Assembly (NCBI GenBank): GCA_023136205.1
Contig: JAGLRQ010000047.1
Span: 1 to 15,870, forward strand
Reading direction: 5' to 3'
DNA length: 15,870 nt
DNA from: Candidatus Auribacterota bacterium
GTDB lineage: Bacteria > Auribacterota > UBA6266
In this document: positions 1 to 15,358 of the stretch, one piece after another
How the letters are laid out: every line of letters starts with the position of its first letter
Numbering within the stretch: the first letter of the stretch is position 1
Translations under genes and position numbers: made by a program
The notes under the pieces: generated by a model
The model's input: only the letters and a program-made list of their open reading frames with translations
Told to the model about the DNA's origin: nothing
The model's database searches: none

Positions 1-230
1 GATACCCTGAGGATAACAGGTTTCTTGAGAGCAGGGTCTATAGCTGAACGCAGTACCCCTCTCGTAACAAAGAGAGCATCACAATAAGGCAAAAGCTGCT
101 TAATAGTTTCCGCCGGTTTTTCTAAACAACGGGTAGGCCCCTGAAAATACCCATGATCTATCGGTAAAAAGAAACAATTCCCGTCTTTACCAAAAAGTTT
201 ATTCATTCTGTTTTCTATTCCCCAATCCAT
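1..230 (-). CDS. Class I aldolase of the DhnA/FbaB/LsrF (DeoC/LacD) family, N-terminal fragment; the 3' part lies outside the window
   Basis: Absent from the ORF track because it runs off the window. The reverse complement of 1..230 starts at ATG (230..228) and reads MDWGIENRMNKLFGKDGNCFFLPIDHGYFQGPTRCLEKPAETIKQLLPYCDALFVTRGVLRSAIDPALKKPVILRVS with no stop. GGAGG (complement of 239..243) lies 8 nt upstream. The R-x-N-K-L-F-x-x-D-G-x5-P-I-D-H-G-x3-G-P pattern matches the N-terminal signature I recall for DhnA-type class I aldolases (FbaB, ADH synthase, LsrF). Confidence 0.6.
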   Translation of the reverse strand, partial: MDWGIENRMNKLFGKDGNCFFLPIDHGYFQGPTRCLEKPAETIKQLLPYCDALFVTRGVLRSAIDPALKKPVILRV

Positions 231-310
231 TTTGCAAACCTCCTATAATTAGTTAAGTTATCAGGTTATCCTTGACGCTGGTATTGTTTTCACGTAACTT
301 GAACAATTTT

Positions 311-1174
311 TCAATTAATATATTTATCAATAATAACCTTCAGTTTTTCCTTTACTCTCTCGGGAATTTTTGCCCTTGAAGTAATTATCGCGGCCGCGAG
401 GGCTTTTGAACAAATGCAATCTCTATTTAGTTTGTTGGCCTTCGGAATTATTTTCTTTATAAGTTTTTTTGCGTTGGAGCTGTTCTTCTTAAGGCACTCC
501 ACAATCATATCAACCGTAACGCTATCATGATCCGGATGCCAGCAGTCATAATCAGTTATCATCGCGACAGTGCAGTAACAGATCCCGGCTTCCCTTGCCA
601 GCTTTGCTTCAACAAGGTTAGTCATTCCGATAACATCCATCCCCCACTTCCTATAAAGATTAGATTCTGCTTTTGTAGAAAACGCGGGGCCTTCCATGTT
701 AACATATGTTCCCCCCATTACCGCTTTAATCCCCATTTCCTTCGCCTCTTCAAAAACCAATTTTCCTACGTCACCGCATACCGGTTCAGCAAACGCTATG
801 TGAGCTACAATCCCTTCTCCAAAAAAAGTGTTGCGGCGGGTGGCATTAGTTCTGTCAAAAAACTGGTCAACTATAACAAAAGTTCCCGGATCAAGCTCTT
901 CCCTGAGGCTCCCGGCCGCGCTGAAAGAAATTATTTTTTCAACACCAAAAGATTTCATGCCATAAATATTCGCCCTGTAATTTATATCCGTGGGCATAAC
1001 TATATGTCCTCTGCCATGTCTCGGTAGAAAAATAATCTCAACTCCCTCCAGTTCACCAATAATATAATTATCTGAAGGATCACCAAAAGGTGTTTCCACC
1101 TTTTTTTCTTTTATATTTGTTACCCCTTCAATGTCGTATAACCCGCTGCCGCCAATTATTCCAATCCTGGTCAT
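311..1174 (-). CDS. mtnP: S-methyl-5'-thioadenosine phosphorylase (MTAP, PNP/UDP phosphorylase family)
   Basis: 287-aa ORF. The N-terminus IGIIGGSGLY, FLPRHGRGH, GMTNLVEAKLAREAGICYCTVAMITDYDCW and the overall length are typical of MtnP/MTAP. ATG at 1174 is preceded by GGGAGGG. Confidence 0.9.
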   Translation of the reverse strand: MTRIGIIGGSGLYDIEGVTNIKEKKVETPFGDPSDNYIIGELEGVEIIFLPRHGRGHIVMPTDINYRANIYGMKSFGVEKIISFSAAGSLREELDPGTFVIVDQFFDRTNATRRNTFFGEGIVAHIAFAEPVCGDVGKLVFEEAKEMGIKAVMGGTYVNMEGPAFSTKAESNLYRKWGMDVIGMTNLVEAKLAREAGICYCTVAMITDYDCWHPDHDSVTVDMIVECLKKNSSNAKKLIKKIIPKANKLNRDCICSKALAAAIITSRAKIPERVKEKLKVIIDKYIN

Positions 1175-1210
1175 TCATCCCTCCCTGAGTGGTTAGTGAA
1201 TCGTATCTAT

Positions 1211-1651
1211 TTAAATAATTTTTTCTTCCATATCAACCTTCCCTGTTATTTTAGGGATAAATTGCTTTTTCTTTAATATAAATTTATTGCCAAAAATAAG
1301 CGACGACATTCCGGCCGCCAACCCGAGCAAAAGAAAACCAACCATTATGAAACTGCCCCTGCCCCCCGCTGATTCCGCGGTAACATTTTCTCCGGCGACA
1401 AGAAAAACAATCAGCAATAATGTTGGCAGGAAGAATGTAAAAAAGGTTGCGGCAAATCTTCTAAAAGTATTTATCTCAATCCTTACTTTATCTCCTTTTT
1501 TCAACCCGGGATAAGGAAGACAAACTAATTCTCCATCTGTCTTACCGGCTGAACACATACTGCACCGAGTACATTCCAAAGAAGCTTCCATTTTCACAAT
1601 AACCCCGTTTGGGGTAATTGAACTAACCGTTCCTGTTTCCCTCTTAATCAA
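1211..1651 (-). CDS. RseC/MucC-family (SoxR-reducing-system type) small membrane protein
   Basis: 146 aa. The N-terminal soluble domain has a Cys cluster (ECTRCSMCSAG...C) followed by GDKVRIEI, then two hydrophobic helices (FAATFFTFFLPTLLLIVFLVAG and SFIMVGFLLLGLAAGMSSLIF); this is the RseC (PF04246-like) layout. The start codon is TTG (1651..1649), with AAGAGG 6 nt upstream. Confidence 0.7.
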   Translation of the reverse strand: MIKRETGTVSSITPNGVIVKMEASLECTRCSMCSAGKTDGELVCLPYPGLKKGDKVRIEINTFRRFAATFFTFFLPTLLLIVFLVAGENVTAESAGGRGSFIMVGFLLLGLAAGMSSLIFGNKFILKKKQFIPKITGKVDMEEKII

Positions 1652-1743
1652 AATAAGCCTCTTTTTAAAAGGTAGAGAAATTTCCGAAATATTTTGTTAT
1701 TATACTAAAGGTTATATTACAAATAAACTTTTAGTTTAATTTT

Positions 1744-3435
1744 ATGACACAGTATATCATAGAAGGATTTTTACTGGGAATTTCCACCGGATTTTTCTGC
1801 GCCGGGATATGTCTTCCTCTTTTAACCCCGATAATGATGCTAAACATAAAAAAAAGCCTCAAACAGGGATTAATTATATTTGGGCTGTTTGGTGCCGGAC
1901 GCCTCGCGGCATATTCTCTTTTCGGCCTTTCCGCGGGGCTTGCGGGGCTTTATCTTTCGGAACTTGTAATTGGCCCGTATATAGTAAGCGTTTCCCTGAT
2001 AATTACCTCTCTTTTACTTCTATTCTTCGCTTATTCAAACGGAAAAGGGTTCTCTTTCTGCCTTAATAAGAAAACCTTTGAAAACACAACTTATCTTCCA
2101 CTTGTACTGGGCTTTTTGACCGGAATAAACATATGTCCTCCATTTCTAATGGCCATACCCGCCATATTTAGGCTGACATCCCCCACTTTGGGGTTATTGT
2201 TCTTTTTGTCTTTCTTTGTAGGAACCACCATTCTGTTGCTTCCCTCCTTCTTTGGATTATTAATCGGTAAAATAAAAATGTTAACCCCTTTAATAAAGAT
2301 CGTAACTGTTTTTATAGGATTGTATTTTTTAACAATTGGCCTTTCATCGTTTAAAAATCTAATCATCTTCTCAAAACCGCACCAGCAAATTGAAGAATCG
2401 GATGTTATAGATTTCTTCCCTGGTGCAAATGTTGTTATAACACCTTTTCACAATTCCGTTTTCTCGGCACACAGCAAAAATAATCTTCTCGGATATATTA
2501 TCATTTCCGATGGGTTTGGCAATTTTACCGGATTTAGCGGGCCGCTTACGGTGGGAATTTCCACCGATCCCGACTTCAAAATCAACAAAGTAAAAATCTT
2601 AAGACACAATGAAGGAGCTCCTTATATAAGGCTGCTCGAAGATTCCGGATTCCTCAAGCAATTCAAAAACAAAACACCGGCAGATGCGCTTATGCTTAAC
2701 ACCGACATTAATGCCGTAACAGGGGCAACCGTTTCTTCATCCGCAATTCTGGATACAGTAAAAATAAGTTATAAAAAAGCATTTTCCCTTGTCACGGGAC
2801 AGAAAGTCACATTACAAAAACCTGTCTATTATTCCCCTTTCTCAATAATGGTAATTTTTGTCCCTTTTATCAGCTGTCTCCTTTATATTTTCTATAAAAA
2901 AGAATATCTGCGCTACTTTACAATGTTTTACGCCTTCATAGTCCTCGGGTTCTGGAAAAAAACAATGCTAACAGGAGAACAGATTGCCAATACCCTGACA
3001 AGTAATATTTTCAGCCCGGCTCAGAGATTATTCCTTGTTTTTTTCGCGCTTATTATAATTATCACTGTATTTTTCGGAAATAAATACTGTTCATTTATAT
3101 GTCCTTTCGGGACAATTCAGCGATTCGCGGGTAAAATTTCAAAAAAGAAAATTACTGTCTCCAGCCAAGTTGTTAATTTCATGGGCAAGACAAAATTTAT
3201 ACTGCTTTTTACAATAATCATAATTTACAGCTTAGCCATAAAAATCCCTTCCGGAAGGCTTGAGCCTTTTAGTACAGCATTCAGTTTGAGAGGAGATTTC
3301 CTGGCTTGGGCCCTTCTATCAGTGTGTATTCTTTCTTCCATTTTTATAGACATGTTCTGGTGCAGGTTTTTCTGCCCGGCAGGTGCCTTTCAGAAAATTA
3401 TCTCAACAATCGGGGAAACCAGTGAAAAAAAATAA
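1744..3435 (+). CDS. Polytopic membrane redox protein: N-terminal DsbD_2/TauE-like 6-TM domain, FMN_bind domain, and C-terminal NosR/NapH/PceC-like CX3CP membrane domain
   Basis: 563-aa ORF. Residues 1-205 form about 6 TM helices with the Cys motifs GFFCAGICLP (C19, C23) and GINICPP (C131), as in DsbD_2/TauE-like proteins. Residues about 245-345 resemble an FMN_bind domain ending in AVTGATVSS; the candidate flavinylated Thr329 is at nt 2728..2730. Residues about 360-563 are hydrophobic and carry two CX3CP motifs: CSFICP (nt 3088..3105) and CRFFCP (nt 3361..3378). There is no obvious SD before ATG 1744. Confidence 0.75.
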   Translation: MTQYIIEGFLLGISTGFFCAGICLPLLTPIMMLNIKKSLKQGLIIFGLFGAGRLAAYSLFGLSAGLAGLYLSELVIGPYIVSVSLIITSLLLLFFAYSNGKGFSFCLNKKTFENTTYLPLVLGFLTGINICPPFLMAIPAIFRLTSPTLGLLFFLSFFVGTTILLLPSFFGLLIGKIKMLTPLIKIVTVFIGLYFLTIGLSSFKNLIIFSKPHQQIEESDVIDFFPGANVVITPFHNSVFSAHSKNNLLGYIIISDGFGNFTGFSGPLTVGISTDPDFKINKVKILRHNEGAPYIRLLEDSGFLKQFKNKTPADALMLNTDINAVTGATVSSSAILDTVKISYKKAFSLVTGQKVTLQKPVYYSPFSIMVIFVPFISCLLYIFYKKEYLRYFTMFYAFIVLGFWKKTMLTGEQIANTLTSNIFSPAQRLFLVFFALIIIITVFFGNKYCSFICPFGTIQRFAGKISKKKITVSSQVVNFMGKTKFILLFTIIIIYSLAIKIPSGRLEPFSTAFSLRGDFLAWALLSVCILSSIFIDMFWCRFFCPAGAFQKIISTIGETSEKK

Positions 3436-4603
3436 TTCGAATAAAATCAGTTTAGCCGTTTTGTTCTCGTCTGTTCTACTGCTTATAGCCATCGGTGTCT
3501 ACCAACTTTTAGCCGACTCGGCAACCCCTTTGCTCAGCTCGGTTCATAAAATTACCAAGTTAAAAAAAGAAGCGGCTCAAAAAGCGGATTTATCTATTAA
3601 AGAAGCTATGTATTACAGGAAACTTCCGGAAAATATGGTCCAATGCGGGTTATGCCCAAGAAAATGTGTTCTTAAAGAAGCTCAAAGAGGTTTCTGCCGC
3701 GTAAGGGTAAACTACGGGGGGAAATTATACTCCCTTGTTTACGGAAAACCCGTTTCTGTTCACGTTGACCCTATCGAAAAAAAACCTCTTTATCATGTCC
3801 TTCCCGCTACCAGCTCATTTTCTCTGGCAACAGCTGGATGTAATCTTGGATGTATCTTCTGCCAGAATTGGGAAATAAGCCAGGCTTATCCTGAAAATGC
3901 GAGGCATCAAAACCTTTCGCCTGAAGAAATTATCAATTATGCCATCAAGGAAAAATGCGAATCAATTGCTTTCACATATACAGAACCAACCATCTTTTAT
4001 GAATATATGCTCGACATCTGCAAGCTCGCGAAGGAAAAAGGCCTAAAAACCATATGGGTCACCTGTGGTTACATCGAGGAGGCTCCTTTACGGGAACTTT
4101 GCAAATATCTTGATGCGGCCAATGTTGATTTAAAAGGCTACAGCGAAAATTTTTACAAAGATTACACAAATTCCTCTCTTGAGCCTGTCCTAAGAACCTT
4201 CAAAATTCTCAAACAGGAGGGAATTCATACCGAACTTACAAATCTTATAATTCCCGGCATGAATGATAATAAAAATATGATTGCCGGCATGTTCGACTGG
4301 ATAGCTATAAACCTCGGCACCGATGTGCCTGTTCACCTTTCAAGGTTTTATCCTCATTATCAGCTCAAAAACAAGCCTCCAACGCCGATAAAAACACTGC
4401 TTGAAGCAAAAGAAATAGGGATAAAAAAGGGGCTGAATTACATTTATATAGGTAATGTTGCCGGTAAAGGCCTTTCAGATATGTACTGCCCCAAATGTAA
4501 AAAACTACTCATAAAAAGATTAGGCTACTCCGTAGAAGAAAATAACATTCAAGATGGTAAATGTAAATTTTGTGGTGAGGAGATACCGGGAATCTGGAAA
4601 TAA
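3422..4603 (+). CDS. amrS: AmmeMemoRadiSam-system-type radical SAM enzyme (AmrS; PFL-activase-like) with an N-terminal hydrophobic extension
   Basis: Family-typical N-terminal Cys motif VQCGLCPRKCVLKEAQRGFCRVR. Radical SAM CX3CX2C motif CNLGCIFC (nt 3839..3862). HVDPIEKKPLYH. C-terminal zinc-ribbon-like CPKCKKLL...CKFCGEEIPG. Start choice: GTG 3422 has GGGGA 5 nt upstream and overlaps the upstream stop. Alternatives are GTG 3383 (ORF-track start, no SD) and ATG 3608 (matches the canonical family N-terminus EAMYYRKL, but the SD is poor). Confidence 0.85.
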   Translation: MKKNNSNKISLAVLFSSVLLLIAIGVYQLLADSATPLLSSVHKITKLKKEAAQKADLSIKEAMYYRKLPENMVQCGLCPRKCVLKEAQRGFCRVRVNYGGKLYSLVYGKPVSVHVDPIEKKPLYHVLPATSSFSLATAGCNLGCIFCQNWEISQAYPENARHQNLSPEEIINYAIKEKCESIAFTYTEPTIFYEYMLDICKLAKEKGLKTIWVTCGYIEEAPLRELCKYLDAANVDLKGYSENFYKDYTNSSLEPVLRTFKILKQEGIHTELTNLIIPGMNDNKNMIAGMFDWIAINLGTDVPVHLSRFYPHYQLKNKPPTPIKTLLEAKEIGIKKGLNYIYIGNVAGKGLSDMYCPKCKKLLIKRLGYSVEENNIQDGKCKFCGEEIPGIWK

Positions 4604-4608
4604 AAAAC

Positions 4609-4798
4609 AAGAAAGAAAAAGATTAAGCCACAGAGACACAGAGAAGAACAAAAGAGAATATCAAAATAGGGCATAGATTAAAATACTAATATTCATTATC
4701 TATGCATGCCCATGGTTTATAATATATGTTTGTATTTTTAAATCTTAAAAATAACCCTGTGCCTCTGAGCCTCCGTGGCAAATATATTTCTCTTTCTT
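4609..4798. repeat. Imperfect terminal inverted repeat (arms 4609..4643 and 4755..4798) flanking a central hairpin; REP/MITE-like element or structured RNA
   Basis: The left arm is AAGAAAGAAAAAGATTAAGCCACAGAGACACAGAG. The reverse complement of the right arm is AAGAAAGAGAAATATATTTGCCACGGAGGCTCAGAGGCACAGGG. Shared blocks are AAGAAAGA, GCCAC[A/G]GAG and [A/G]CACAG[A/G]G. A central 8-bp inverted repeat pairs GCATAGAT (4671..4678) with ATCTATGC (4698..4705). Confidence 0.5.
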
Positions 4799-4807
4799 AT
4801 TTCTCCC

Positions 4808-4837
4808 TTGAAAAATATCCTCCCTTTATTATATATT
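4808..4837 (+). promoter_or_regulatory. Sigma70-like promoter for tRNA-Thr
   Basis: TTGAAA (4808..4813), an 18-nt spacer, then TATATT (4832..4837). This places the transcription start 1-3 nt before the mature tRNA 5' end at 4846. Confidence 0.5.
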
Positions 4838-4845
4838 TCCACATA

Positions 4846-4921
4846 GCCCACGTAGCTCAATTGGTAGAGCAGCGCATTCGTAATGCGCAGGTTATCAGTT
4901 CAAGTCTGATCGTGGGCTCCA
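4846..4921 (+). tRNA. tRNA-Thr, anticodon CGU, CCA encoded
   Basis: Manual cloverleaf: acceptor GCCCACG/CGTGGGC, D arm GCTC-AATTGGTA-GAGC, anticodon arm GCGCA-TTCGTAA-TGCGC (anticodon CGT), variable AGGTT, T arm ATCAG-TTCAAGT-CTGAT, discriminator T, then CCA (4919..4921). Confidence 0.95.
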
Positions 4922-4963
4922 TCCAAGTCGCGCCGGAGGGTTTATAATTTATGGGCAAAAAAA

Positions 4964-5039
<76 letters not shown>

Positions 5040-5062
5040 ACAAAAAAATTACACAGGAAAAA

Positions 5063-5091
5063 ATGTTATTACACAAGAGCTTTGCTGTCAA
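5063..5091 (-). promoter_or_regulatory. Sigma70-like promoter for tRNA-Phe
   Basis: On the minus strand: TTGACA (complement of 5086..5091), a 17-nt spacer, then TAACAT (complement of 5063..5068), about 25 nt upstream of the mature tRNA 5' end. Confidence 0.45.
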
Positions 5092-5150
5092 GGGATTTTG
5101 GGATAAACAATACTATTCCTCGCGGTATTATCGAAATTTTTAGTTTTCAA

Positions 5151-5179
5151 TTTAGATAGGAAGCGTAGTATAGTATAAT
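5151..5179 (+). promoter_or_regulatory. Candidate promoter for the TerB-like gene
   Basis: TTTAGA (5151..5156), a 17-nt spacer, then TATAAT (5174..5179). The SD GGAG at 5188..5191 and ATG at 5201 follow. Confidence 0.35.
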
Positions 5180-5200
5180 AATCGAAAGGAGAAACGCTCA

Positions 5201-5572
5201 ATGGTAAACAAAAAAAATAACAACAATGGAGAAATACTTCAAGACACAGCTCTTTTGTGGATGCTGATGACGGTATCTGACGGCGCGGTTGCCATGGGTG
5301 AACTTAATTGCCTTACAAATTTCCTGGAAGAAAAGGGCCTTGTTGAAAATGAGATAGATAATATTCTTCATTATGTAACTGTTAAGATTGAAAATTCCCC
5401 CGGCATTGGGATCATAGAGAGAATTGTTAAAAACTATACTTACAATGAGCGTATTTCAATTGTAAGATCCCTTAAAAAACTTGCGCGCAATGATAAATGC
5501 TTTATATCTTCGGAAGAGAAACTCTTACAGGATACTTGTTCTTTAATCGGTGTTAAAGAAAAAGATATTTAA
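5201..5572 (+). CDS. TerB-like (tellurite-resistance TerB / DjlA N-terminal domain-like) small cytoplasmic protein
   Basis: 123 aa with SD AAAGGAG upstream. It has two half-motifs of the TerB-like helical fold: LMTVSDGAVAMGELNCLTNFL and LKKLARNDKCFISSEEKLLQDTCSLIGV (the A-x-DG-x-i-x2-E-x2-l pattern). The assignment rests on pattern only. Confidence 0.5.
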   Translation: MVNKKNNNNGEILQDTALLWMLMTVSDGAVAMGELNCLTNFLEEKGLVENEIDNILHYVTVKIENSPGIGIIERIVKNYTYNERISIVRSLKKLARNDKCFISSEEKLLQDTCSLIGVKEKDI

Positions 5573-5635
5573 GAGGCATATTGTCCTGCCCGTTCTTTGT
5601 TCCCTAATTAAGGCCAAGCGCATGTTTTTTTATCC

Positions 5636-6994
5636 ATGAAAAATATAAAAGAAATTATAATTATGGGATGCGGCCCCGCGGGGCTGGCAGCAGGATACCA
5701 CCTCGCCAGAAAAGGTATTCGACCCCACCTCTTTGACAAAGATACATCCGTAGGCGGCCTTTCCAAAACTGTACACTGGAAAGGGAACAAATTTAACCTG
5801 GGCGAACATAGATTTTACACAAAATATCCCGAGGTGTTAAAGCTATGGAAAGACATTCTCCCCAGGGATTTGAAAACGAAAAAGTGCGTATCAAGAACCT
5901 ACTATAACAATAAATTTTTAGAATACAAAAACCTTTACAAAAATCTCGGCTTTAATAAAACAATTCTATGCTTTCTCAGTTACGCCAAAACCCGCGTTTC
6001 CAGGAGAAAAAGCGAAGAAACATTTGAAGAATTGATAACAAATAGATTCGGCAGAAAATTTTTTGAAATCTTTTTCAAGAACTACACCGAAAAGACATGG
6101 GGGCTTCCCTGCGGTAAACTTAGCCCCGAGCGGAGAACACAAGGAATTAAGAATTTTCCTCTAATAACCGCGATAAAAAACTCTTTTGAAAATATTTCAC
6201 CATCGCTGGAAAAAGCTCCGGAGATTAAAACAGCCATAACCGAACCGCTCTATCCAAAAAAAGGGCCCGGGCAATTATATGAGAAAATCGCGGACTACAT
6301 AAAGAAACGCGGGGGAAAGATATCGCTGAACACAGAATTAAAAGAAATAGAAATTTCGGAAAACAGAATAACAAAAGCAATATTAAACGACACGGAATAT
6401 TCCCCCGGCGAATTTATCTCGAGTATCCCACTCAATCATTTCATAGAGTCAATTGCTTCCTTAATACCTCAAACAGTAAGGGATGCCGCTAAAAAACTCA
6501 AATTCAGGAACCTTTTAAAAGTTGTGCTTATTTACAACAAAAAGGGCCTTTTCCCTGACAACTGGATATATATTAATAATTCAAACGTAAAAGTGGTAAG
6601 GATTCAGAATTTTAATAATTGGTCTAAAGTTATGACGGTTGACAGAAATTCGACCATGCTTGGGCTGGAATATTTCTGCGGCAAAAATGATGATATATGG
6701 AACAGTACTGATAATGAGCTTATAAATTTAGGCCTTGAAGATCTCGAAAAACTAAACCTGGCAAAAGCGGATTTTTTCAGCGATGGAATAGTTTATCGCG
6801 TTTCAGATGCTTATCCCATCGACAGCATTGGTTACAAAGAAAATTTAAAAGTAGTCCGTGAATACCTCGATAATATAAGCAACCTGCATTTAGCAGGCAG
6901 GGCAGGGACATTCGGATATGACAATATGAGCTACTCTGTAATGACGGGAATACAGTCGGCAAAAAACATTTTAGCGGGCAAAAAAGCAATCTAA
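5636..6994 (+). CDS. FAD/NAD(P)-binding oxidoreductase, UDP-galactopyranose-mutase / amine-oxidase-like fold
   Basis: 452 aa. N-terminal Rossmann dinucleotide motif IIIMGCGPAGLAAGYHLARKG...FDKDTSVGG. LGEHRFYT and FFKNYTEKTWG resemble the Glf-family HxFHT and YTxKQWG blocks. There is no SD before ATG 5636. Confidence 0.75.
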   Translation: MKNIKEIIIMGCGPAGLAAGYHLARKGIRPHLFDKDTSVGGLSKTVHWKGNKFNLGEHRFYTKYPEVLKLWKDILPRDLKTKKCVSRTYYNNKFLEYKNLYKNLGFNKTILCFLSYAKTRVSRRKSEETFEELITNRFGRKFFEIFFKNYTEKTWGLPCGKLSPERRTQGIKNFPLITAIKNSFENISPSLEKAPEIKTAITEPLYPKKGPGQLYEKIADYIKKRGGKISLNTELKEIEISENRITKAILNDTEYSPGEFISSIPLNHFIESIASLIPQTVRDAAKKLKFRNLLKVVLIYNKKGLFPDNWIYINNSNVKVVRIQNFNNWSKVMTVDRNSTMLGLEYFCGKNDDIWNSTDNELINLGLEDLEKLNLAKADFFSDGIVYRVSDAYPIDSIGYKENLKVVREYLDNISNLHLAGRAGTFGYDNMSYSVMTGIQSAKNILAGKKAI

Positions 6995-8436
6995 AACTCT
7001 CTCACCACATAATTCGCTTCGTCATACCGGTAAGAAAAAATTTCGCTCCCGCTTAAAATATCCCCTGTTTTTTCCGCTCTCAAAATTACATAGAAATTTT
7101 CACCTTCTTTTTCTAAATTCTCAATTTCTCCGACAGTAAGACGGGGAATCTTTTTGCCGAGATAAAAAACAAGTTCCGCGTTATGAAAATCATATGTATA
7201 TACACCTTTTTCCCCAATACCTCTTCTTTTTATTTCCATGGCAAGGTTCTTAAAAGACGAATTCGGGTAAAATTTCATGTGGAGGAAAAATGAGTCAAGT
7301 ATGGCGCCGGATATAACACATAAAACAAACATAGAAATAACAACAATAACAACACGCCCCACCTTTTTGCGATCAATCAGAAAATCAGCGAACCATCCTG
7401 TAACAAGTGCCATCGGAGGCAAAAGCAGAAGAGAATAATGCGGCTGTTTATTGGGATTTACTGAAAGTAAAATAAAAGAAACAACTAACCAGACGAGGGT
7501 AAATACAAGTGCCTGATTTTTTTCTTTTTTGAAAAACGCGAACCCGGCACCCCAGTACATAAAGACAGTCCACGGAGCAAAACATTTAAACAACGTGTAA
7601 AAATAATAATAGAATGGCCCCGGATGATCTATCCCTTTCACAAATGCTATTTCAAGCTCATTTTTAAAAACTCCTGCTGCTAATCCACTTTCACGCAAAG
7701 CCGCCATTGCGTACCACAACGAACTTAAAATAAGGCAAATTAGGAGGCTGATTGGATTTAACCATTTTTTAATTTCTTTAAATTCCCTCAACACTAAAAG
7801 CACACACAGGAAAGATAGAAAGGGAAGAACAAAGCCTGCCGGGCCTTTAAGATTAACGGCAACCGCGCACATAAAGTATCCGGCAAGATACATATAAGTT
7901 TTCCTTACGTCCGATGAAAAAGCTATATACCAAAAAAACGCGGCAAGAACAATGCTTAAGACAAGAGCCATATCTATTTCCGCGAGCCGCGAATGTTTTA
8001 TGAACTGAAAAGAGGTTGCTAAAACAAGAGAAGTTATAAAGCCGGCTCTTTTATTAAAAAGCCTCTTGCCGAAAAAAAACATAACAATTACCGCTAAAAG
8101 ACTAAAAACAAATGAAGGGAATCTCGCGGAAAATTCATTTACCGTATCAAAAAGGCAATACGAACCGGCTACAATCCATGTCATAAGAGGGGGTTTTTTT
8201 AAACGCGGTATTCCGTTTAATGTAGGGATAAACCAGTTGCCGTCTTTCAACGCCTCTCTCGCTGTGACAGCTACTCTTGCTTCCTGAGTTCTCTCTATGG
8301 GGATTTTCCACATTCCAAGAAAAGAAACTAAAAAAGAAATGAGAATTATTGTTAAAAGGTATTTATAGAAAAAAGGGACAGTCCACCTGTTCTCTGCGCT
8401 CGCTTGGGACTGTCCCCATTTTCTAAAATTGTTCAA
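6991..8436 (-). CDS. GT-C fold glycosyltransferase of the ArnT/PMT_2 type (GT83/GT39-like), polyprenyl-phosphate-sugar dependent
   Basis: 481 aa with more than 10 predicted TM helices. It has the signature periplasmic-loop motif EARVAVTAREALKDGNWFIPTLNGIPRLKKPPLMTW (compare ArnT E-x-RYA-x-REM...KPPL-x-YW). The start codon is TTG (8436..8434), 8 nt after the upstream stop. Confidence 0.85.
   Translation of the reverse strand: MNNFRKWGQSQASAENRWTVPFFYKYLLTIILISFLVSFLGMWKIPIERTQEARVAVTAREALKDGNWFIPTLNGIPRLKKPPLMTWIVAGSYCLFDTVNEFSARFPSFVFSLLAVIVMFFFGKRLFNKRAGFITSLVLATSFQFIKHSRLAEIDMALVLSIVLAAFFWYIAFSSDVRKTYMYLAGYFMCAVAVNLKGPAGFVLPFLSFLCVLLVLREFKEIKKWLNPISLLICLILSSLWYAMAALRESGLAAGVFKNELEIAFVKGIDHPGPFYYYFYTLFKCFAPWTVFMYWGAGFAFFKKEKNQALVFTLVWLVVSFILLSVNPNKQPHYSLLLLPPMALVTGWFADFLIDRKKVGRVVIVVISMFVLCVISGAILDSFFLHMKFYPNSSFKNLAMEIKRRGIGEKGVYTYDFHNAELVFYLGKKIPRLTVGEIENLEKEGENFYVILRAEKTGDILSGSEIFSYRYDEANYVVREF
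8375..8416. repeat. Perfect 10-bp GC-rich inverted repeat (GGGACAGTCC / GGACTGTCCC) with a 22-nt loop, inside codons 7-21 of the GT-C gene
   Basis: Read directly from the sequence: 8375..8384 is the exact reverse complement of 8407..8416. In the minus-strand mRNA the stem begins about 20 nt downstream of the TTG start. Confidence 0.6.
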
Positions 8437-8444
8437 TTCTATCT

Positions 8445-8753
8445 CTATGCTTCTACAGATTTCTTCTTGTAAATAAAATACAGGTTTCGGACATAAACTA
8501 CACTGTTAAAAAGATAGCCTACTATATAAACAGGTTTCTTGATATAAAAGCCGTACACAAGAAGAAGAAGGCTGCCTACAATACTCAAATACCAGAAAGA
8601 AACAGGAATAATACTCTGTTTTTTTCTCTCAGTGGCAATCCACTGAACAATAAACCTTGAACTGAAAAAAAGCTGGCCAACCCATCCGATCAATGCCCAG
8701 GGATCTTTTAATTCAACATAAAGTTCTTTGAAGTAATTGGCTGCCGCGTCCAT
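8445..8753 (-). CDS. LAB_N (lipid-A-disaccharide synthase N-terminal domain) family small membrane protein
   Basis: 102 aa with 3 TM helices. The motif GWVGQLFFSSRFIVQWIATERKKQSIIPVSFWYLSIVGSLLLLVYG...VRNLYFI matches the LAB_N (PF07578-like) consensus GQxxFxxRFxxQWxxSExxxxSxxPxxFWxxS. The ATG lies 1 nt after the upstream stop. Confidence 0.8.
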   Translation of the reverse strand: MDAAANYFKELYVELKDPWALIGWVGQLFFSSRFIVQWIATERKKQSIIPVSFWYLSIVGSLLLLVYGFYIKKPVYIVGYLFNSVVYVRNLYFIYKKKSVEA

Positions 8754-8754
8754 C

Positions 8755-9489
8755 CTATTTCTCCTGTTTTATCCTGTATAGCAGTTTCCTTTTTTTCATC
8801 CATCTTACAGCAAGCATGTCTAAAAATGATTTAAACACCCTGTTCCAGACACCATATTTTGACTCGCCGTGCAATCTCTTCGCGTGTTTTACAGGTATTT
8901 CAATAACCGAAAATCCTTCCATTTTAAAAAGAGTCGGTAAAAACCTGTGAAATCCGTTATACATTAAAATGCTTTCAAAGCACTCTTTTTTAAAAGCGCG
9001 ATAAGTACATCCCGCGTCTGTAATCTCGTCTTTAAGAATGCTGTTTCTTACCTTGTTTGCTACGCGCGAAGAAATATTCTTGATAAACCCGTCTTTTCTC
9101 ATTCCCACCCTTGTTCCGCAAACACAGTCGAATTCCTTGATTTTTTCAAGAAACGCGGGAATGTCCGCAGGATCATTTTCAAGGTCAGCATCTATAGTCA
9201 TCAACACCCTCCCGCCGGATGATTTAAGGGCGGCATCCTCAGCAGCGCTCTCTCCTGAATTTTCTTCAAACTGGAGACATCTTAAGAAAGGGCATTTTTG
9301 CTTCGTCTCAAGCATTACCTGCCAGGATCTATCCGTACTACAATCATCCACCACAACTATCTCGTAAGAGTATCCGGGAATATTTTTCATCACCTTCATT
9401 ATCCTGTCAACAATCACAGGAATATTCCCCTCTTCATTGAAAACAGGAATACATATGGAAAGGCCTAATTCGCTTTCCTTTTCGGCCAT
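8755..9489 (-). CDS. GT2 polyprenyl-phosphate glycosyltransferase (ArnC/GtrB/DPM1-like)
   Basis: 244 aa. LSICIPVFNEEGNI, YEIVVVDDCSTDRS and TIDADLENDP (DxD) form a GT-A core. The C-terminus is short and amphipathic, as in ArnC/Dpm1-type enzymes. The ATG lies 1 nt after the upstream stop. Confidence 0.85.
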   Translation of the reverse strand: MAEKESELGLSICIPVFNEEGNIPVIVDRIMKVMKNIPGYSYEIVVVDDCSTDRSWQVMLETKQKCPFLRCLQFEENSGESAAEDAALKSSGGRVLMTIDADLENDPADIPAFLEKIKEFDCVCGTRVGMRKDGFIKNISSRVANKVRNSILKDEITDAGCTYRAFKKECFESILMYNGFHRFLPTLFKMEGFSVIEIPVKHAKRLHGESKYGVWNRVFKSFLDMLAVRWMKKRKLLYRIKQEK

Positions 9490-9490
9490 T

Positions 9491-10573
9491 TCAACACCCC
9501 AAAAATTCTTTGATAGAATTTACAACATATTCTATATTCTCTTTCTCGAGTGCGGGATACATAGGAAGCGAAAGAATTTTCTTAACCGCGGTTTCCGTTG
9601 CCGGAAGAGATATTTCCCCTATAAGCCCGGTTACTGCCGGCTGTTTATGGACAGGAACGGGATAATGTATTCCTGTGCCTATCCCTTTTTCCTTTAAAAA
9701 TTCTTTCATTTTATCCCTGTCGTCAACTTCAATAACATACATATGAAAAACATGCTCCACACCTTCCCTTGTTTTCGGTGTTTTAACAATGCCTTTAAGC
9801 AACTCGGTATATTTAGCCGCGTGTTTTCCTCTATTTCTATTAAGCTCATCTATAACTTTAAGCTGACACCTGCCGACAGCAGCCTGTATCTCGTTAAATC
9901 TCATATTAAACCCCATTTCATCATTAAAAAATTTACTTTGCCTGCCATGGTTTCTGAGAGAAATAACTCTATCTGCCAGAGCGTCGTCACTTGTCGCTAT
10001 CCCCCCGCCGTCACCATAAACAGTAAGATTCTTGGAAGGGTAGAAGGAAAAACCCGCGGCCAAACCCATACTGCCAACCCTATTGCCATTGTACTTCGCC
10101 CCAACCGCCTGCGCGCAATCTTCTATAACAAAAAGACTATGCTTTTTAGCAATCTCCATGATTCTCGTCATATTGGCCGGCTGGCCATACAGATGGACAG
10201 GAAGTATCCCGATAGACTTAGGCGTAATCTTTTTTTCCAAATCATCAGGATCCATGCAATATGTCTCATCAATATCAACAAACACAGGTTTCAGCCCCAC
10301 ATGACAAATAGGTTCAACTGAAGGAAAAGCCGTTAAAGATGGAAGAAGAATCTCCCCTTCCTCTTTTAAATTCATTCCCTTAAGCAGAAGATGCACTGCT
10401 GATGTCCACGAATTTGACAGGACAAATCTTTTAACACCGACAAAACCGGCAAGTTCCTTCTCAAATGAGTCAGACTCGGGGCCCAGGATAAAATTCCCGG
10501 AATCTAAAACTTTAAGCACACTGTCTTTAATTTCTTTTGAATTGTAAACTTTTGAAAGCGGTATTTTCTTCAT
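9491..10573 (-). CDS. DegT/DnrJ/EryC1/StrS-family PLP-dependent sugar aminotransferase (ArnB/GnnB/WbpE-like)
   Basis: The FSFYPSKNLTVYGDGGGI block contains the PLP Lys. ILGPESDSFEKELAGF, IEDCAQAVGA and LRNHG are also present. The ORF track starts at TTG 10576; the adjacent ATG 10573 with AAGGGA upstream is preferred. Confidence 0.9.
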   Translation of the reverse strand: MKKIPLSKVYNSKEIKDSVLKVLDSGNFILGPESDSFEKELAGFVGVKRFVLSNSWTSAVHLLLKGMNLKEEGEILLPSLTAFPSVEPICHVGLKPVFVDIDETYCMDPDDLEKKITPKSIGILPVHLYGQPANMTRIMEIAKKHSLFVIEDCAQAVGAKYNGNRVGSMGLAAGFSFYPSKNLTVYGDGGGIATSDDALADRVISLRNHGRQSKFFNDEMGFNMRFNEIQAAVGRCQLKVIDELNRNRGKHAAKYTELLKGIVKTPKTREGVEHVFHMYVIEVDDRDKMKEFLKEKGIGTGIHYPVPVHKQPAVTGLIGEISLPATETAVKKILSLPMYPALEKENIEYVVNSIKEFLGC

Positions 10574-10585
10574 CAAATATCCCTT

Positions 10586-11560
10586 CTATTCTTCGAGATT
10601 AATTAACTTCCCTTCTTTCGCTGACCGGTAAGCGGCTTCTATTATCTTCACCACATTATAACCGTCTTCGCCATCGGCCAAAGGTTTCTTCCTGTTTTTA
10701 ACACAATCAATAAAACTTTCCAGCTCAAGAACTAACGGCTCTGCCTGCATGATTTCCTGTGTTAGTACCTCTCCCTGGGTCGCGACCCATGTATTTTCGT
10801 TTTTAGCATGAGTGTTTTTGTATATCTTTATCTTATCCTGGGATGAAGTAAAATCGCATTCCAGGGTAGCATCAGAACCAATAATAACTACTTCTCTCTT
10901 CTTTTTTGGCCTGAAATAGTTAGCCCGGACTTCGGCGTCAACATCACCATAATTAAGAGAAATCCATGAGGAATCATCCATGCCTCTCCCTAGATTGTCC
11001 TGCATCCTCGCAAGGACTTTCACAGGAATTTTCCCCAGAAGAAAATTAAAAAGATCTATATAATGCAATGAATCTGACCAGCTCACACCCGCATCCATCC
11101 GCGGCCTTTTAAAACCGTAAAAATTTCCTATCATCCACTTTATTTCCCCAAGCGTACCATCCTTTATTTTTTCAACCATAAAGTTTGTCGCGGGGTCAAA
11201 TCTGAAAACATGGCCTACCTGGAGAATCTTTTTGTCTTTCTCCGCCATTTTACATAATTTTCTGCAGTCGCCGGAATTAAGAGCAAGAGGTTTTTCAACA
11301 AATACATCCTTCCCCTTCTCAAAAGCAGCCGAACATACCTCGAGATGCGTATCGGCAGGAGTTACCACATCAACAGCATCAACTTCATCCAAAAAGCTAT
11401 CGTAAGAATCCGATATTTTCGATTGAGGAATCCCGGTTTCAAGAGCTTTCTTCCTTGAATCCTCATTGGAATCCACAACATAAACATCCATATTCAACAT
11501 TTTAAGTATTCTAAGGTGGTTACTCCCCCACCTTCCAAAACCAACAAGCATTATTTTCAT
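10586..11560 (-). CDS. Gfo/Idh/MocA-family NAD(P)-dependent (sugar-nucleotide) oxidoreductase
   Basis: 324 aa. N-terminal Rossmann motif MKIMLVGFGRWGSNHL. The family block DVFVEKPLALN (EKP motif). The C-terminal alpha/beta domain is typical of GFO_IDH_MocA. SD GGGGTG lies upstream of ATG 11560. Confidence 0.85.
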   Translation of the reverse strand: MKIMLVGFGRWGSNHLRILKMLNMDVYVVDSNEDSRKKALETGIPQSKISDSYDSFLDEVDAVDVVTPADTHLEVCSAAFEKGKDVFVEKPLALNSGDCRKLCKMAEKDKKILQVGHVFRFDPATNFMVEKIKDGTLGEIKWMIGNFYGFKRPRMDAGVSWSDSLHYIDLFNFLLGKIPVKVLARMQDNLGRGMDDSSWISLNYGDVDAEVRANYFRPKKKREVVIIGSDATLECDFTSSQDKIKIYKNTHAKNENTWVATQGEVLTQEIMQAEPLVLELESFIDCVKNRKKPLADGEDGYNVVKIIEAAYRSAKEGKLINLEE

Positions 11561-11599
11561 AGAATCACCCCTTAATTTTCTTCCTTGGTTAAACCAGAC

Positions 11600-11629
11600 A
11601 TACTACTGTATTTGCCACTAATTTTTCAA
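11600..11629 (-). promoter_or_regulatory. Candidate promoter of the five-gene minus-strand glycan operon
   Basis: On the minus strand: TTGAAA (complement of 11624..11629), an 18-nt spacer, then TAGTAT (complement of 11600..11605), about 35 nt upstream of ATG 11560. Motif match only. Confidence 0.3.
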
Positions 11630-11732
11630 CAGAAAACATTTACTAAATTCATCTTGACAAATCTAATCCCAAGATTTACCGTAAAACATCGGGTCTGTTA
11701 GACAGGTGTGTATTTTTGCGGGGAGGACGCAT

Positions 11733-12080
11733 ATGCTTAATAAGCGAAAATATGAGCGGTTGAAAGTATCGGCAACAATAACCCTTTGTAAAAAAGGGCT
11801 CTTCCGTAAGGGGGTCCCCATCCGCATTCATATTACCAATATATCAAAGGGAGGCGCGCAGGTAATAAGTGCCGTTCCATTTAATAAAAACGACCGCGTA
11901 ATGCTTACCTGTCAGTCAAGGGATAAATTAACATCTATAGATCTCGCGGGAAAGATAGCCTGGACAAAACCTGTGACCATTAAAAACAAACCTTTAATTC
12001 TTGTTGGCATCCAGTTTTCATCAGCCCGTGACAAAGATTTTGAGCAGGTTGCGACAATGCTCATTGCCAATTTAACTTAA
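11733..12080 (+). CDS. Single-domain PilZ protein (putative c-di-GMP receptor)
   Basis: 115 aa from ATG 11733, with GGAGG at 11722..11726 (6-nt spacing). The ORF-track GTG 11706 is less likely. Both PilZ signatures are present: RKYER (RxxxR) and NISKGG (D/N-x-S-x-x-G). Confidence 0.75.
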   Translation: MLNKRKYERLKVSATITLCKKGLFRKGVPIRIHITNISKGGAQVISAVPFNKNDRVMLTCQSRDKLTSIDLAGKIAWTKPVTIKNKPLILVGIQFSSARDKDFEQVATMLIANLT

Positions 12081-12160
12081 AAATTTACTTTGAAATTACG
12101 CCAAAACTAACCCTTCGTCCGACACGCTGGTATATCTATAATAATAAACAGCATAAAAAC

Positions 12161-12189
12161 TTGAATAAGAATAGATATTTACATATAAT
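12161..12189 (+). promoter_or_regulatory. Near-consensus sigma70 promoter for the small secreted protein gene
   Basis: TTGAAT (12161..12166), exactly 17 nt of spacer, then TATAAT (12184..12189). SD AAGGAG at 12210..12215 and ATG at 12222 follow. Confidence 0.55.
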
Positions 12190-12221
12190 CGTCTGAAATA
12201 TCAAAAACAAAGGAGTGTGGA

Positions 12222-12548
12222 ATGAAAAAAGTTACCTGTTTAATTCTTTGTGTTGCTTTTGCCCTTTCTATCGCTCTCCCTTCTTACGCGGTAACCATTA
12301 CAAGAGAAAGGGGCATGCAGTATCAGGGTGGAGAAAAACCAAAGATCAACCCTGCAAGTGTTAAACAAAAAACAGCCCGCATGCTGGGAAAAACATCGGG
12401 CACAACACTCGGAAGAGTTCCCGGCGGCTCCAAAGCCTGGGCGGAATATCAGAAGGCACAATACGAGAAAACCGGACAAGCTACAGGACAGAAAAATATT
12501 CAGAACTTCAAAACGAAGATTATCAATAAAATAGAAAGAAAAGACTAA
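12222..12548 (+). CDS. Small secreted, highly basic, low-complexity protein of unknown function
   Basis: 108 aa. Sec-type signal peptide MKKVTCLILCVAFALSIALPSYA|VT. The mature part of about 85 aa is rich in K/G/T/Q, has no Cys and no family I recognise. Strong promoter and SD signals support expression. Confidence 0.65.
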   Translation: MKKVTCLILCVAFALSIALPSYAVTITRERGMQYQGGEKPKINPASVKQKTARMLGKTSGTTLGRVPGGSKAWAEYQKAQYEKTGQATGQKNIQNFKTKIINKIERKD

Positions 12549-12666
12549 AACTCCTAATTATTATCAGCAGCTAGCGAAGGTCCATCGTAGCGGAATTCAC
12601 TATTCATCTCCGCGCTCACGTACGGGGAATTTTGCGAAGGCGGATTAAAAAACTCACACGCAGTAA

Positions 12667-14472: not shown

Positions 14473-14489
14473 TATAACTCCTCAGTAAC

Positions 14490-15206: not shown

Positions 15207-15257
15207 ATAGCCCCCTCGGGGGAGACTACGCTACGCACTATTTCGTGATTTGCTGGT

Positions 15258-15266
15258 ATTCTACCA
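15258..15266 (-). promoter_or_regulatory. Candidate extended -10 promoter element for pcm
   Basis: On the minus strand: TGgTAGAAT (complement of 15258..15266), about 50 nt upstream of ATG 15206. The -35 (TTAATT at 17-nt spacing) is weak. Motif match only. Confidence 0.3.
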
Positions 15267-15292
15267 CATTTTGACTTTTCAATTAAAAGAAC

Positions 15293-15321
15293 TTTAAAGA
15301 TATTTACATCCACGTTATAAT
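15293..15321 (+). promoter_or_regulatory. Candidate promoter for the downstream glycosyltransferase gene
   Basis: TTTAAA (15293..15298), a 17-nt spacer, then TATAAT (15316..15321). SD GGGAGG at 15348..15353 and ATG at 15359 follow. Confidence 0.35.
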
Positions 15322-15358
15322 AAATAGGAATTTTCATTCACACTAAAGGGAGGCACAA

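Follow-up and report, generated by a model that had tools for sequence, protein, structure and literature searches.

A polytopic, putatively flavinylated membrane protein coupled to the AmmeMemoRadiSam radical SAM enzyme in Auribacterota and its possible place in the cell envelope

Introduction

AmmeMemoRadiSam, a system of three genes, is widespread and has human homologues, AMMECR1 and MEMO1; to our knowledge no function has been assigned to it, and a full-text literature search found no functional study of it. Its members are homologues of AMMECR1 (TIGR04335) and Memo (TIGR04336) and a radical S-adenosylmethionine (SAM) enzyme, AmrS (TIGR04337). Here we describe an amrS gene and the membrane protein gene that it overlaps in a Candidatus Auribacterota bacterium (contig JAGLRQ010000047.1 of GenBank assembly GCA_023136205.1); positions 1 to 15,870 of this contig, the whole stretch of DNA that was analysed, are referred to as the window. 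The original prediction, made from the sequence of the window, was that these two genes and a divergent rseC gene may form a membrane redox module with a dedicated electron supply for the [4Fe-4S] cluster of AmrS, or else that AmrS may act on a membrane or envelope substrate.

The closest solved fold to AmrS is that of the PFL activase PFL-AE, which is cytoplasmic and is reduced by flavodoxin. CcdA, a relative of DsbD with six transmembrane (TM) helices and a conserved Cys beside Pro in TM1 and TM4, serves Sec-exported apoproteins whose cysteines must be reduced for cofactor attachment. In NapH-like flavinylated systems (NosR, PceC/RdhC, NapH), a polytopic domain that holds two CX3CP motifs comes after an FMN_bind domain carrying the ApbE flavinylation motif [S/T]GA[S/T]; these systems are modular and work with various terminal enzymes, and most of them have unknown partners (Meheust et al. 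2021, PMC8238504). The RseC protein of E. coli, which has a cytoplasmic Cys domain holding an Fe-S cluster, is a partner of the FMN_bind-containing Rsx complex (PMC11729352). Lastly, in Tat (twin-arginine translocation) hitch-hiker export, reviewed in PMC10924467, as for the [NiFe] hydrogenase HybOC, the twin-arginine (RR) signal is on one polypeptide and the exported enzyme is another.

Results

The membrane gene and amrS are coupled and recur together

The gene content of the window was established from six-frame open reading frames (ORFs) and profile searches, and the three genes were found where the original prediction had placed them, with the expected 92-bp divergent control gap between rseC and the membrane gene and with amrS overlapping the end of the latter (Table 1). 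The mechanical ORF for amrS runs from GTG 3383 to 4603 on the forward strand. GTG 3422 is the more likely start, because it is preceded by a Shine-Dalgarno sequence, GGGGA, at 5-nt spacing and because its product of 393 aa, beginning MKKNNSNKISLAV, equals in length the 97% identical protein P0011, which begins MKNNISRKISLAV. With this start the overlap measures 14 nt (53 nt with GTG 3383). As the tRNA-Thr and tRNA-Phe genes come directly after amrS, the transcription unit probably comprises the membrane gene and amrS alone; a 73-aa ORF at 4726-4947 overlaps tRNA-Thr and was rejected as spurious. The gap equivalent to 1652-1743 is 108-109 bp long in the related loci L001 and L091, and a scan of this AT-rich DNA for promoters and terminators yielded nothing useful.

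The locus is fully kept in four other Auribacterota loci (L001, L008, L009 and L091), where the membrane proteins are 42-94% identical, and synteny there extends over about 15 kb, including the genes for methylthioadenosine (MTA) phosphorylase, the TerB-domain protein and a glycosylation cluster. Since these surroundings are conserved too, conservation within Auribacterota proves little by itself. The pair was, however, seen in at least four lineages. In L003, from a Planctomycetota metagenome-assembled genome, a membrane protein of only 27% identity is again followed by an overlapping amrS, and the place of rseC is taken by a divergently paired gene whose product, a Memo-AMMECR1 fusion, scores above both the TIGR04336 and the TIGR04335 cut-off. 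In L094 and L095, from metagenomic lineages, the gene for the three-domain membrane protein overlaps amrS, with no Memo-AMMECR1 within 8 kb. The adjacency on which the original prediction was built thus recurs at a distance.

The modules also occur as single polypeptides. Fusions of AmrS to DsbD_2, the N-terminal domain of the membrane protein, are recurrent (P0010, P0029, P0050, P0062, P0086 and P0096), P0086 alone being found on 22 contigs, and in P0146 and L096 one polypeptide of about 1,050 aa comprises DsbD_2, FMN_bind, both CX3CP units, one TM helix and AmrS. The remaining part of the membrane protein, the FMN_bind-NapH-like unit, was traced by a scan of 185,579 genomes, one per species, the best matches of which formed 29 loci (L010-L041, L044). 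About 20 of these 29 adjoin AmrS and/or Memo-AMMECR1, and they belong to Nitrospirota, Omnitrophota, many Planctomycetota, Desulfomonilaceae (Desulfobacterota) and sulfur-oxidising Gammaproteobacteria. In Planctomycetota, Desulfomonilaceae and Gammaproteobacteria the FMN_bind-NapH unit is the C-terminus of a protein of 1,200-1,300 aa that starts with a polytopic spermidine-synthase-like module, which is a separate neighbouring gene in L003, L040, L090, L093 and L094; the separate Spermine_synth-like (PF01564) proteins have 640-820 aa, one of them with a weak MFS_1 match.

Clustering of all neighbouring ORFs was swamped by shadow ORFs, and greedy gene calling was used instead. After it, the only families recurrent across most loci were Memo-AMMECR1 and the super-family of fused AmrS, DsbD_2, NapH and Spermine_synth proteins. 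The overlapping adjacency in distant lineages, the fusions and the repeated co-location of separate modules thus strongly support a link between the membrane protein and AmrS, which would form a functional unit; the two genes are translationally coupled and recur together across phyla, at times fused. The pairing assumed in the original prediction stands on this adjacency and these fusions, whereas the topology described below speaks against the cytoplasmic placement of AmrS that went with it.

A side observation concerns the Spermine_synth-like protein, which is not encoded in the window: with its SAM- or decarboxylated SAM-binding fold and transporter-like domain it could relate to SAM supply.

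Table 1 Features of the window and of related loci. Positions without a locus name refer to the window.
Feature	Position	Strand	Remark
rseC-family gene	1211-1651	-	146 aa; Pfam RseC_MucC
Divergent gap between rseC and membrane gene	1652-1743		92 bp; from ORF coordinates
Polytopic membrane protein gene	1744-3435	+	563 aa; DsbD_2 (6 TM), FMN_bind, NapH/NosR-like domain (5 TM)
DsbD_2 TM1 motif, C19-A-G-I-C23-L-P25	1798-1818	+	C19 and C23 invariant in 37/37 family members
DsbD_2 TM4 motif, C131-P-P	2134-2142	+	C131 invariant in 37/37
Predicted ApbE flavinylation site, T326-G-A-T329	2719-2730	+	A328 and T329 invariant in 37/37
First CX3CP, C449-S-F-I-C453-P454	3088-3105	+	invariant in 37/37
Second CX3CP, C540-R-F-F-C544-P545	3361-3378	+	C540 and C544 invariant in 37/37
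amrS	3422-4603	+	393 aa from GTG 3422; TIGR04337
AmrS N-terminal hydrophobic anchor, ISLAVLFSSVLLLIAIGVYQLLA	3446-3514	+	aa 9-31, after MKKNNSNK
First conserved element of AmrS core, E-A-M-Y-Y	3602-3616	+	from alignment; A62 invariant
AmrS N-terminal motif, C75-x2-C78-P-x2-C82 (plus C92)	3644-3667	+	invariant or near-invariant in 57 sequences
Radical SAM CX3CX2C, C140-N-L-G-C144-I-F-C147	3839-3862	+	invariant in 57 relatives
AmrS C-terminal four-Cys element, C356-P-K-C359 ... C381-K-F-C384	4487-4573	+	invariant in 57-sequence alignment
tRNA-Thr(CGT)	4846-4921	+	ARAGORN
tRNA-Phe(GAA)	4964-5039	-	ARAGORN
Spermine_synth-like genes	L003 13077-15347; L090 10676-12814; L093 10946-12865; L094 9309-11762
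Spermine_synth-like genes	L017-L044, L032, L033, L038		about 7.3-11.4 kb of each locus
Small RR ORFs	L010 ~1780-1900; L014 ~3490-3610		L011, L032: AmrS flanks; L017-L044: between AmrS and Memo-AMMECR1

The radical SAM enzyme is AmrS with an N-terminal anchor

The enzyme scored 381.4 bits with TIGR04337 (cut-off 220) over model positions 2-333 of 349, while the runner-up family, YjjW activase, reached 58 bits; the scores with the glycyl-radical activase models TIGR02493 (56.8, cut-off 231.75) and TIGR02494 (48.4, cut-off 174.35) were far below threshold. By these profile scores it is a true, full-length AmrS, as first assigned, and not the generic PFL-activase paralogue that had been considered as an alternative. 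No AmrS structure is known to have been solved; in a Foldseek search with the AlphaFold2 (AF2) model the best match was PFL-AE (3cb8; E 6e-15, TM-score 0.81 on target). The two share the fold and the CX3CX2C radical SAM core, but at about 15% identity the resemblance is one of fold only, and AmrS has four further cysteines in an element at its C-terminus as well as an N-terminal CxxCPxxC...C motif, C75/C78/C82 with C92, which may hold an auxiliary cluster. Eleven of its cysteines are invariant or near-invariant in 57 sequences.

The N-terminal hydrophobic segment had been taken for something that this particular AmrS had gained. The segment is real, and it marks a large AmrS clade: it is kept in the Auribacterota and Planctomycetota orthologues and in 103 of the 120 nearest AmrS relatives. 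An artefact of ORF extension, with the true start at ATG 3608, was ruled out by this conservation and by the confident model of the segment. AF2 gave a helix at residues 6-33, a linker of about 10 residues and a confident core (predicted local distance difference test, pLDDT, 93.9). Because only about 10 residues separate the anchor helix from it, the core is predicted to be held close to the membrane.

Neither a Memo nor an AMMECR1 homologue is encoded in the 15.9-kb window, in agreement with the original prediction, or within 10 kb in the syntenic loci L001 and L091, so that the window does not contain the three genes of AmmeMemoRadiSam. The description of AmrS as an orphan is therefore right locally; for its relatives it is not, since they usually have a gene for a Memo-AMMECR1 fusion as neighbour, and Memo and AMMECR1 homologues found next to relatives score above the TIGR04336 and TIGR04335 cut-offs. 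These loci differ from the described system in that the two partners are fused and bear export signals, AmrS either bears an anchor or signal itself or is accompanied by a Tat peptide in trans, and DsbD_2, the FMN_bind-NapH-like protein and the polytopic Spermine_synth-like protein are additional conserved partners.

The membrane protein combines a CcdA-like domain with a putative NapH-like conduit

Three Pfam domains were detected in the 563-aa protein: DsbD_2 (PF13386) at aa 9-193 (54.7 bits), FMN_bind (PF04205) at aa 263-340 (39.5 bits) and Fer4_5 (PF12801), matched twice (54 bits). The FMN_bind domain and two CX3CP motifs of the original prediction were thus both found, and DsbD_2, which it had named as a search model only, proved to be present and to be the part that best tracks anchored AmrS (see below). 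A word-index search returned 7 full-length homologues and made the protein look nearly unique; an exhaustive HMMER search gave about 40 full-length cluster representatives, so the family is small rather than unique. All Cys of the motifs and the TGAT are invariant in its 37 full-length members.

With PF12801 twice, PF04205 and T326-G-A-T329 in one protein, the operational definition of a NapH-like flavinylated system (PMC8238504) applies. The established families are matched only weakly, with sub-threshold hits to the NosR, NapH and RnfG profiles (NosR NF046105, 49.2 bits against a cut-off of 1000; NapH/MauN TIGR02163, 32.3 against 213). Unlike NosR, the protein lacks the C-terminal ferredoxin domain with 2x[4Fe-4S]; it stops 18 aa past the second CX3CP, and the Cys-rich ferredoxin-like tail of some family members is not present. 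It differs further from NapH-like systems by its N-terminal DsbD_2 and by its partner, a radical SAM enzyme (with or without Memo-AMMECR1) instead of a respiratory reductase.

DsbD_2 resembles CcdA/DsbD in its six TM helices, taken from low-confidence AF2 secondary structure, in the Cys beside Pro in TM1 and TM4, in a predicted orientation with both ends outside, which is consistent with the positive-inside rule, and in the C-terminal fusion of a client domain, which mirrors DsbD-gamma. It is unlike them in that TM1 has CxxxC and not a single PC motif, and in place of a protein with the thioredoxin fold its client would be a radical SAM enzyme. As PF13386 also takes in proteins annotated UreH-like or TauE/SafE, transport of a metal or small molecule by this domain is possible as well.

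AmrS is predicted to share the FMN side of the membrane

In the window protein FMN_bind comes directly after TM6 of DsbD_2. No TM helix lies between TM6 and AmrS in the DsbD_2-AmrS fusions, and exactly one lies between the tail past the second CX3CP and AmrS in the full fusions. This parity indicates that AmrS is always on the FMN side, opposite the CX3CP motifs. As for which side that is, loops 1, 3 and 5, the CX3CP loop and the C-terminal tail, predicted to be inside, carry on average 15.0 Lys and Arg residues against 6.6 on the opposite side, and the inside count is the higher in 37/37 full-length members; the first CX3CP sits in the loop richest in these residues (mean 4.5). In short relatives, as in NosR, a signal anchor opens the protein and FMN_bind comes next. 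The topologies of NosR, PceC, NapH and CcdA/DsbD are established, and the orientation predicted here, with FMN outside and CX3CP inside, agrees with them (see also PMC8238504 for NosR, PceC and NapH). On the positive-inside rule, the signal-anchored short relatives and the invariant TGAT, the FMN side, and with it AmrS, is predicted to be extracytoplasmic. A cytoplasmic [4Fe-4S] enzyme, which was implicit in the original prediction, does not accord with this topology.

Export signals and a putative split Tat module in related loci

A single N-terminal hydrophobic segment with a basic n-region is found in the 103 AmrS relatives mentioned above, many of them with an AXA-type cleavage site, such as MRRILAVILALFLAATLASA followed by IQ. 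AmrS of L116 and L118 carries a canonical Tat signal in cis (PTRREFLLYGLLGLGG; PTRREFLLYGLLGLGGAFIVGS). Each of the 18 Memo-AMMECR1 fusions that were examined beside these genes has an N-terminal signal of the lipobox, signal-peptidase-I or anchor type.

In 16 loci AmrS begins directly at CxLCPxxC, and a small neighbouring ORF of 40-70 aa, usually between AmrS and Memo-AMMECR1, encodes [ST]RRxF[LIF] together with a basic region and a hydrophobic stretch that is rich in Gly and Ala. In Nitrospirota, Omnitrophota, Desulfomonilaceae and Gammaproteobacteria this peptide ends in KKAMFWKR, READYY or REAKYYK, which aligns with LKEAMYYRKL, the earliest of the conserved elements in the window AmrS as in ordinary AmrS, and the cognate enzyme lacks exactly the EAMYY first strand that the peptide carries. 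The Planctomycetota ORFs (10 loci) have the RR signal and another conserved tail, KYPGxLK...KWSG. In L011 and L032 a second, non-RR anchor peptide lies upstream of AmrS, its stop in L011 overlapping the AmrS start (ATGA). By analogy, the simplest reading is a Tat hitch-hiker in which the first strand of the enzyme has moved onto the signal-bearing peptide. As with HybOC, the RR signal is on a separate polypeptide beside a signal-less Fe-S enzyme (PMC10924467); the carrier is, however, merely 40-70 aa long, outside Planctomycetota it looks like the split-off first strand of the enzyme, and the window AmrS bears a fused non-RR anchor. The latter has no match to [ST]RRxFLK, MKKNNSNK being followed by a very hydrophobic 23-residue segment, and since it has no twin-arginine its export would be in unfolded form.

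Loci with a complete AmrS N-terminus were sorted by signal type, giving 18 of Tat type (signal in trans or cis) and 20 with a non-Tat anchor or signal or a DsbD_2 fusion, the window belonging to the second type. DsbD_2 occurred in 0/18 of the former and 20/20 of the latter, as a stand-alone protein, fused to AmrS or fused to the conduit, the NapH-like protein in 18/18 and 11/20, and Memo-AMMECR1 in 15/18 and 6/20. DsbD_2 is thus the component that best tracks anchored AmrS. In a rough tree of AmrS cores the anchor type is largely one derived group, and the variety of fusion architectures speaks for a sustained functional tie between DsbD_2 and AmrS.

The RseC-family protein

The original assignment to the RseC family was confirmed by an end-to-end match to PF04246 (57.1 bits, cut-off 24.4; model positions 1-129 of 130). 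The protein has Cys27-x2-Cys30-x2-Cys33 plus Cys44 at its N-terminus and then two predicted TM helices. It thus resembles the RseC of the SoxR-reducing system of Rsx/Rnf, RseC and ApbE, in which two TM helices accompany a Cys-rich domain that is cytoplasmic and binds an Fe-S cluster. The window gene, moreover, adjoins that of a membrane protein with an RnfG-like flavinylatable FMN_bind domain. The systems differ in that homologues of RnfA, B, C, D and E are not present, the membrane part is NapH-like and the link was seen in Auribacterota only. A hidden Markov model built from the Auribacterota RseC had no match in any other fetched locus, which speaks against RseC as a general partner of the pair, and a protein search returned close relatives only and no independent support. 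The adjacency supposed at the outset holds in Auribacterota, where the surrounding 15 kb is syntenic, and it is therefore not independent evidence of a link. RseC is a plausible member of the module and a candidate for its Fe-S partner on the cytoplasmic side.

Neighbouring genes

Next to rseC, at 311-1174 (-), lies a gene for MTA phosphorylase (TIGR01694, 308 bits), which in L001 (4904-9431) is followed by genes for a xanthine/uracil permease, CstA and a class II aldolase. MTA phosphorylase with class II aldolase resembles salvage of the SAM by-products MTA and 5'-deoxyadenosine, which would be sensible near a radical SAM enzyme. At 14490-15206 (-) a protein-L-isoaspartate O-methyltransferase (PCMT, 232 bits) is encoded. 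Its N-terminus, MRNKLGYKLKSVFVTVIVLLLFSSCGVAAE, shows a lipobox-like FSSC as well as a basic n-region and a hydrophobic stretch, all of them before the start of the Pfam match at aa 38. The protein resembles an exported enzyme that depends on SAM and, if real, would be independent evidence for the use of SAM outside the cytoplasm.

After the tRNA genes, 5201-6994 (+) encodes a TerB-domain protein (123 aa) and a PRK07208-type amine-oxidase-like flavoprotein (NF005548, 471 bits), which are syntenic in all Auribacterota loci and do not occur in AmrS loci elsewhere. An ArnT-like cluster at 6991-11560 (-), comprising a PMT_2 glycosyltransferase, a small LAB_N membrane protein, a family 2 glycosyltransferase (GT2), a DegT aminotransferase and a GFO/IDH/MocA oxidoreductase, resembles an undecaprenyl-phosphate amino-sugar pathway of envelope modification. 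Between 11706 and 14472 there are genes for a stand-alone PilZ protein (124 aa), a family-less protein of 108 aa whose N-terminus resembles a signal peptide, and a 601-aa protein in which a Na+/H+ exchanger is joined to a PTS EIIA-2 domain. Among the related loci, L093 encodes a CxxCxxCC (PF03692) protein at 10527-10949 (-) beside the Spermine_synth gene, and L094 a second radical SAM enzyme (289 aa) at 5229-6098 (+), just upstream of the three-domain membrane gene.

Discussion

A dedicated electron supply for AmrS is the most economical reading of the pairing. We consider it an even chance that 1744-3435 and 3422-4603 encode one redox unit of the envelope, with conduit, FMN, AmrS outside the cytoplasm and a thiol supply by DsbD_2. 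The membrane protein would be a transmembrane electron conduit of NosR/PceC type, which electrons would enter at the two CX3CP sites on the cytoplasmic face. Their donor would be cytoplasmic, possibly the Cys-rich Fe-S domain of the divergently encoded RseC, or quinol; RseC in this role fits what has been reported for E. coli (PMC11729352) and the missing ferredoxin-like tail of the window protein. The electrons would cross to covalently bound FMN on the opposite face, where AmrS would be tethered by its N-terminal helix about 10 residues from the membrane, so that the FMN domain would act as a tethered flavodoxin-like reductant for the [4Fe-4S] cluster. The CcdA-like DsbD_2 may send thiol reducing power to the same side and keep the 11 AmrS cysteines reduced after unfolded, non-Tat insertion, by analogy with CcdA and apocytochrome c, since a cofactor enzyme that crosses unfolded needs its Cys reduced on the far side. 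In relatives, the substrate of AmrS would probably be the exported Memo-AMMECR1 fusion, or else an envelope molecule. The wider proposition, that the whole AmrS clade including the window works outside the cytoplasm, reached as holo-enzyme through Tat (in cis or trans) or through Sec-type anchoring with DsbD_2, and is powered by a NosR-like conduit, seems to us slightly less than an even bet.

The placement of AmrS outside is predicted from three independent lines that agree, namely parity, absolute orientation and export signals. Several points weigh against it. We know of no radical SAM enzyme outside the cytoplasm, and of no periplasmic SAM pool or Fe-S assembly route; the literature search likewise turned up no radical SAM enzyme described as exported. 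A twin-arginine is missing from the window AmrS, and RR occurs in 15/104 fused signals only. No ApbE, Tat or SAM-transport gene is encoded in the window. The topology is computational and rests on the positive-inside rule, homology and parity, and for the membrane protein AF2 gave a poor model (pLDDT 45, from 7 sequences) that was unusable for a fold search. The correlation with DsbD_2 mirrors few evolutionary transitions, such that a Fisher test would overstate it, and the adjacency of rseC cannot be told apart from general synteny. Also, about two thirds of the stand-alone DsbD_2 or FMN_bind-NapH-like homologues with full flanks in a metagenome scan have no AmrS within 6 kb; the association of AmrS with the conduit is frequent and not universal.

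A serious rival, if on balance an unlikely one, has the same parts the other way round, with AmrS and FMN_bind in the cytoplasm and the membrane protein as a quinol- or potential-driven reductase that activates the AmrS cluster, essentially as originally proposed. All the evidence of coupling, from adjacency to fusions, fits it too, as parity fixes AmrS on the FMN side and not which side that is. With SAM, Fe-S assembly and reductants at hand in the cytoplasm the biochemistry would be easy, cytoplasmic FMN_bind domains occur in some fumarate and cinnamate reductases, and the absence of a Tat motif from the window AmrS would need no comment. The positive-inside rule would, however, have to fail in 37/37 members, CX3CP would be outside, unlike in NapH, NosR and PceC, and the orientation of CcdA/DsbD would be inverted, while the Tat signals on or beside AmrS, the AXA-type cleavable signals and the exported Memo-AMMECR1 would be left unexplained.

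Alternatively, the conduit could serve another exported enzyme, for instance a Memo-AMMECR1 encoded elsewhere, with AmrS co-expressed as its maturase. Memo is a redox and metal protein, FMN_bind-NapH-like proteins occur in all 18 Tat-type loci with exported Memo-AMMECR1 alongside in 15 of them, and NosR-type proteins classically serve a periplasmic catalytic enzyme (PMC8238504). We nevertheless regard this as improbable, for AmrS itself is fused to DsbD_2 and to the entire conduit, the conduit or DsbD_2 accompanies AmrS with no Memo-AMMECR1 within 6-10 kb in the window, L091, L094, L095, L088 and L176, and L116 and L118 have FMN_bind-NapH and Tat-AmrS without Memo. That the adjacency is merely inherited gene order and the N-terminal segment incidental is very unlikely. 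It would account for the syntenic 15 kb of Auribacterota, clearly unrelated genes included, but the link recurs in other gene orders and as fusions in unrelated phyla, the two genes overlap, the functional residues are invariant, and the fusions would have to be assembly artefacts, yet P0086 is present on 22 contigs.

What appears new is a NapH-like flavinylated conduit that has a CcdA-like domain and a radical SAM enzyme as partner; an exported radical SAM enzyme would possibly be the first. Memo, AMMECR1 and radical SAM go unmentioned in the main text of the survey by which NapH-like flavinylated systems were defined, and its supplement, as stored, has no Memo, AMMECR1 or PF13386 entries (PMC8238504).

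The data give AmmeMemoRadiSam a predicted location, the cell envelope, and conserved accessory parts, which are the NapH-like FMN/Fe-S conduit, the CcdA-like DsbD_2, the polytopic spermidine-synthase-like protein and the small Tat peptides. Should AmrS indeed work outside, radical SAM chemistry, SAM and, for Sec-type members, Fe-S insertion would no longer be confined to the cytoplasm: SAM would have to be available beyond the cytoplasmic membrane, and the Sec-type class would also need Fe-S insertion there. A terminal enzyme would then be assigned to part of the partnerless pool of NapH-like flavinylated systems, and the Auribacterota locus would be a genomic example of RseC/Rnf-type electron delivery to radical SAM enzymes.

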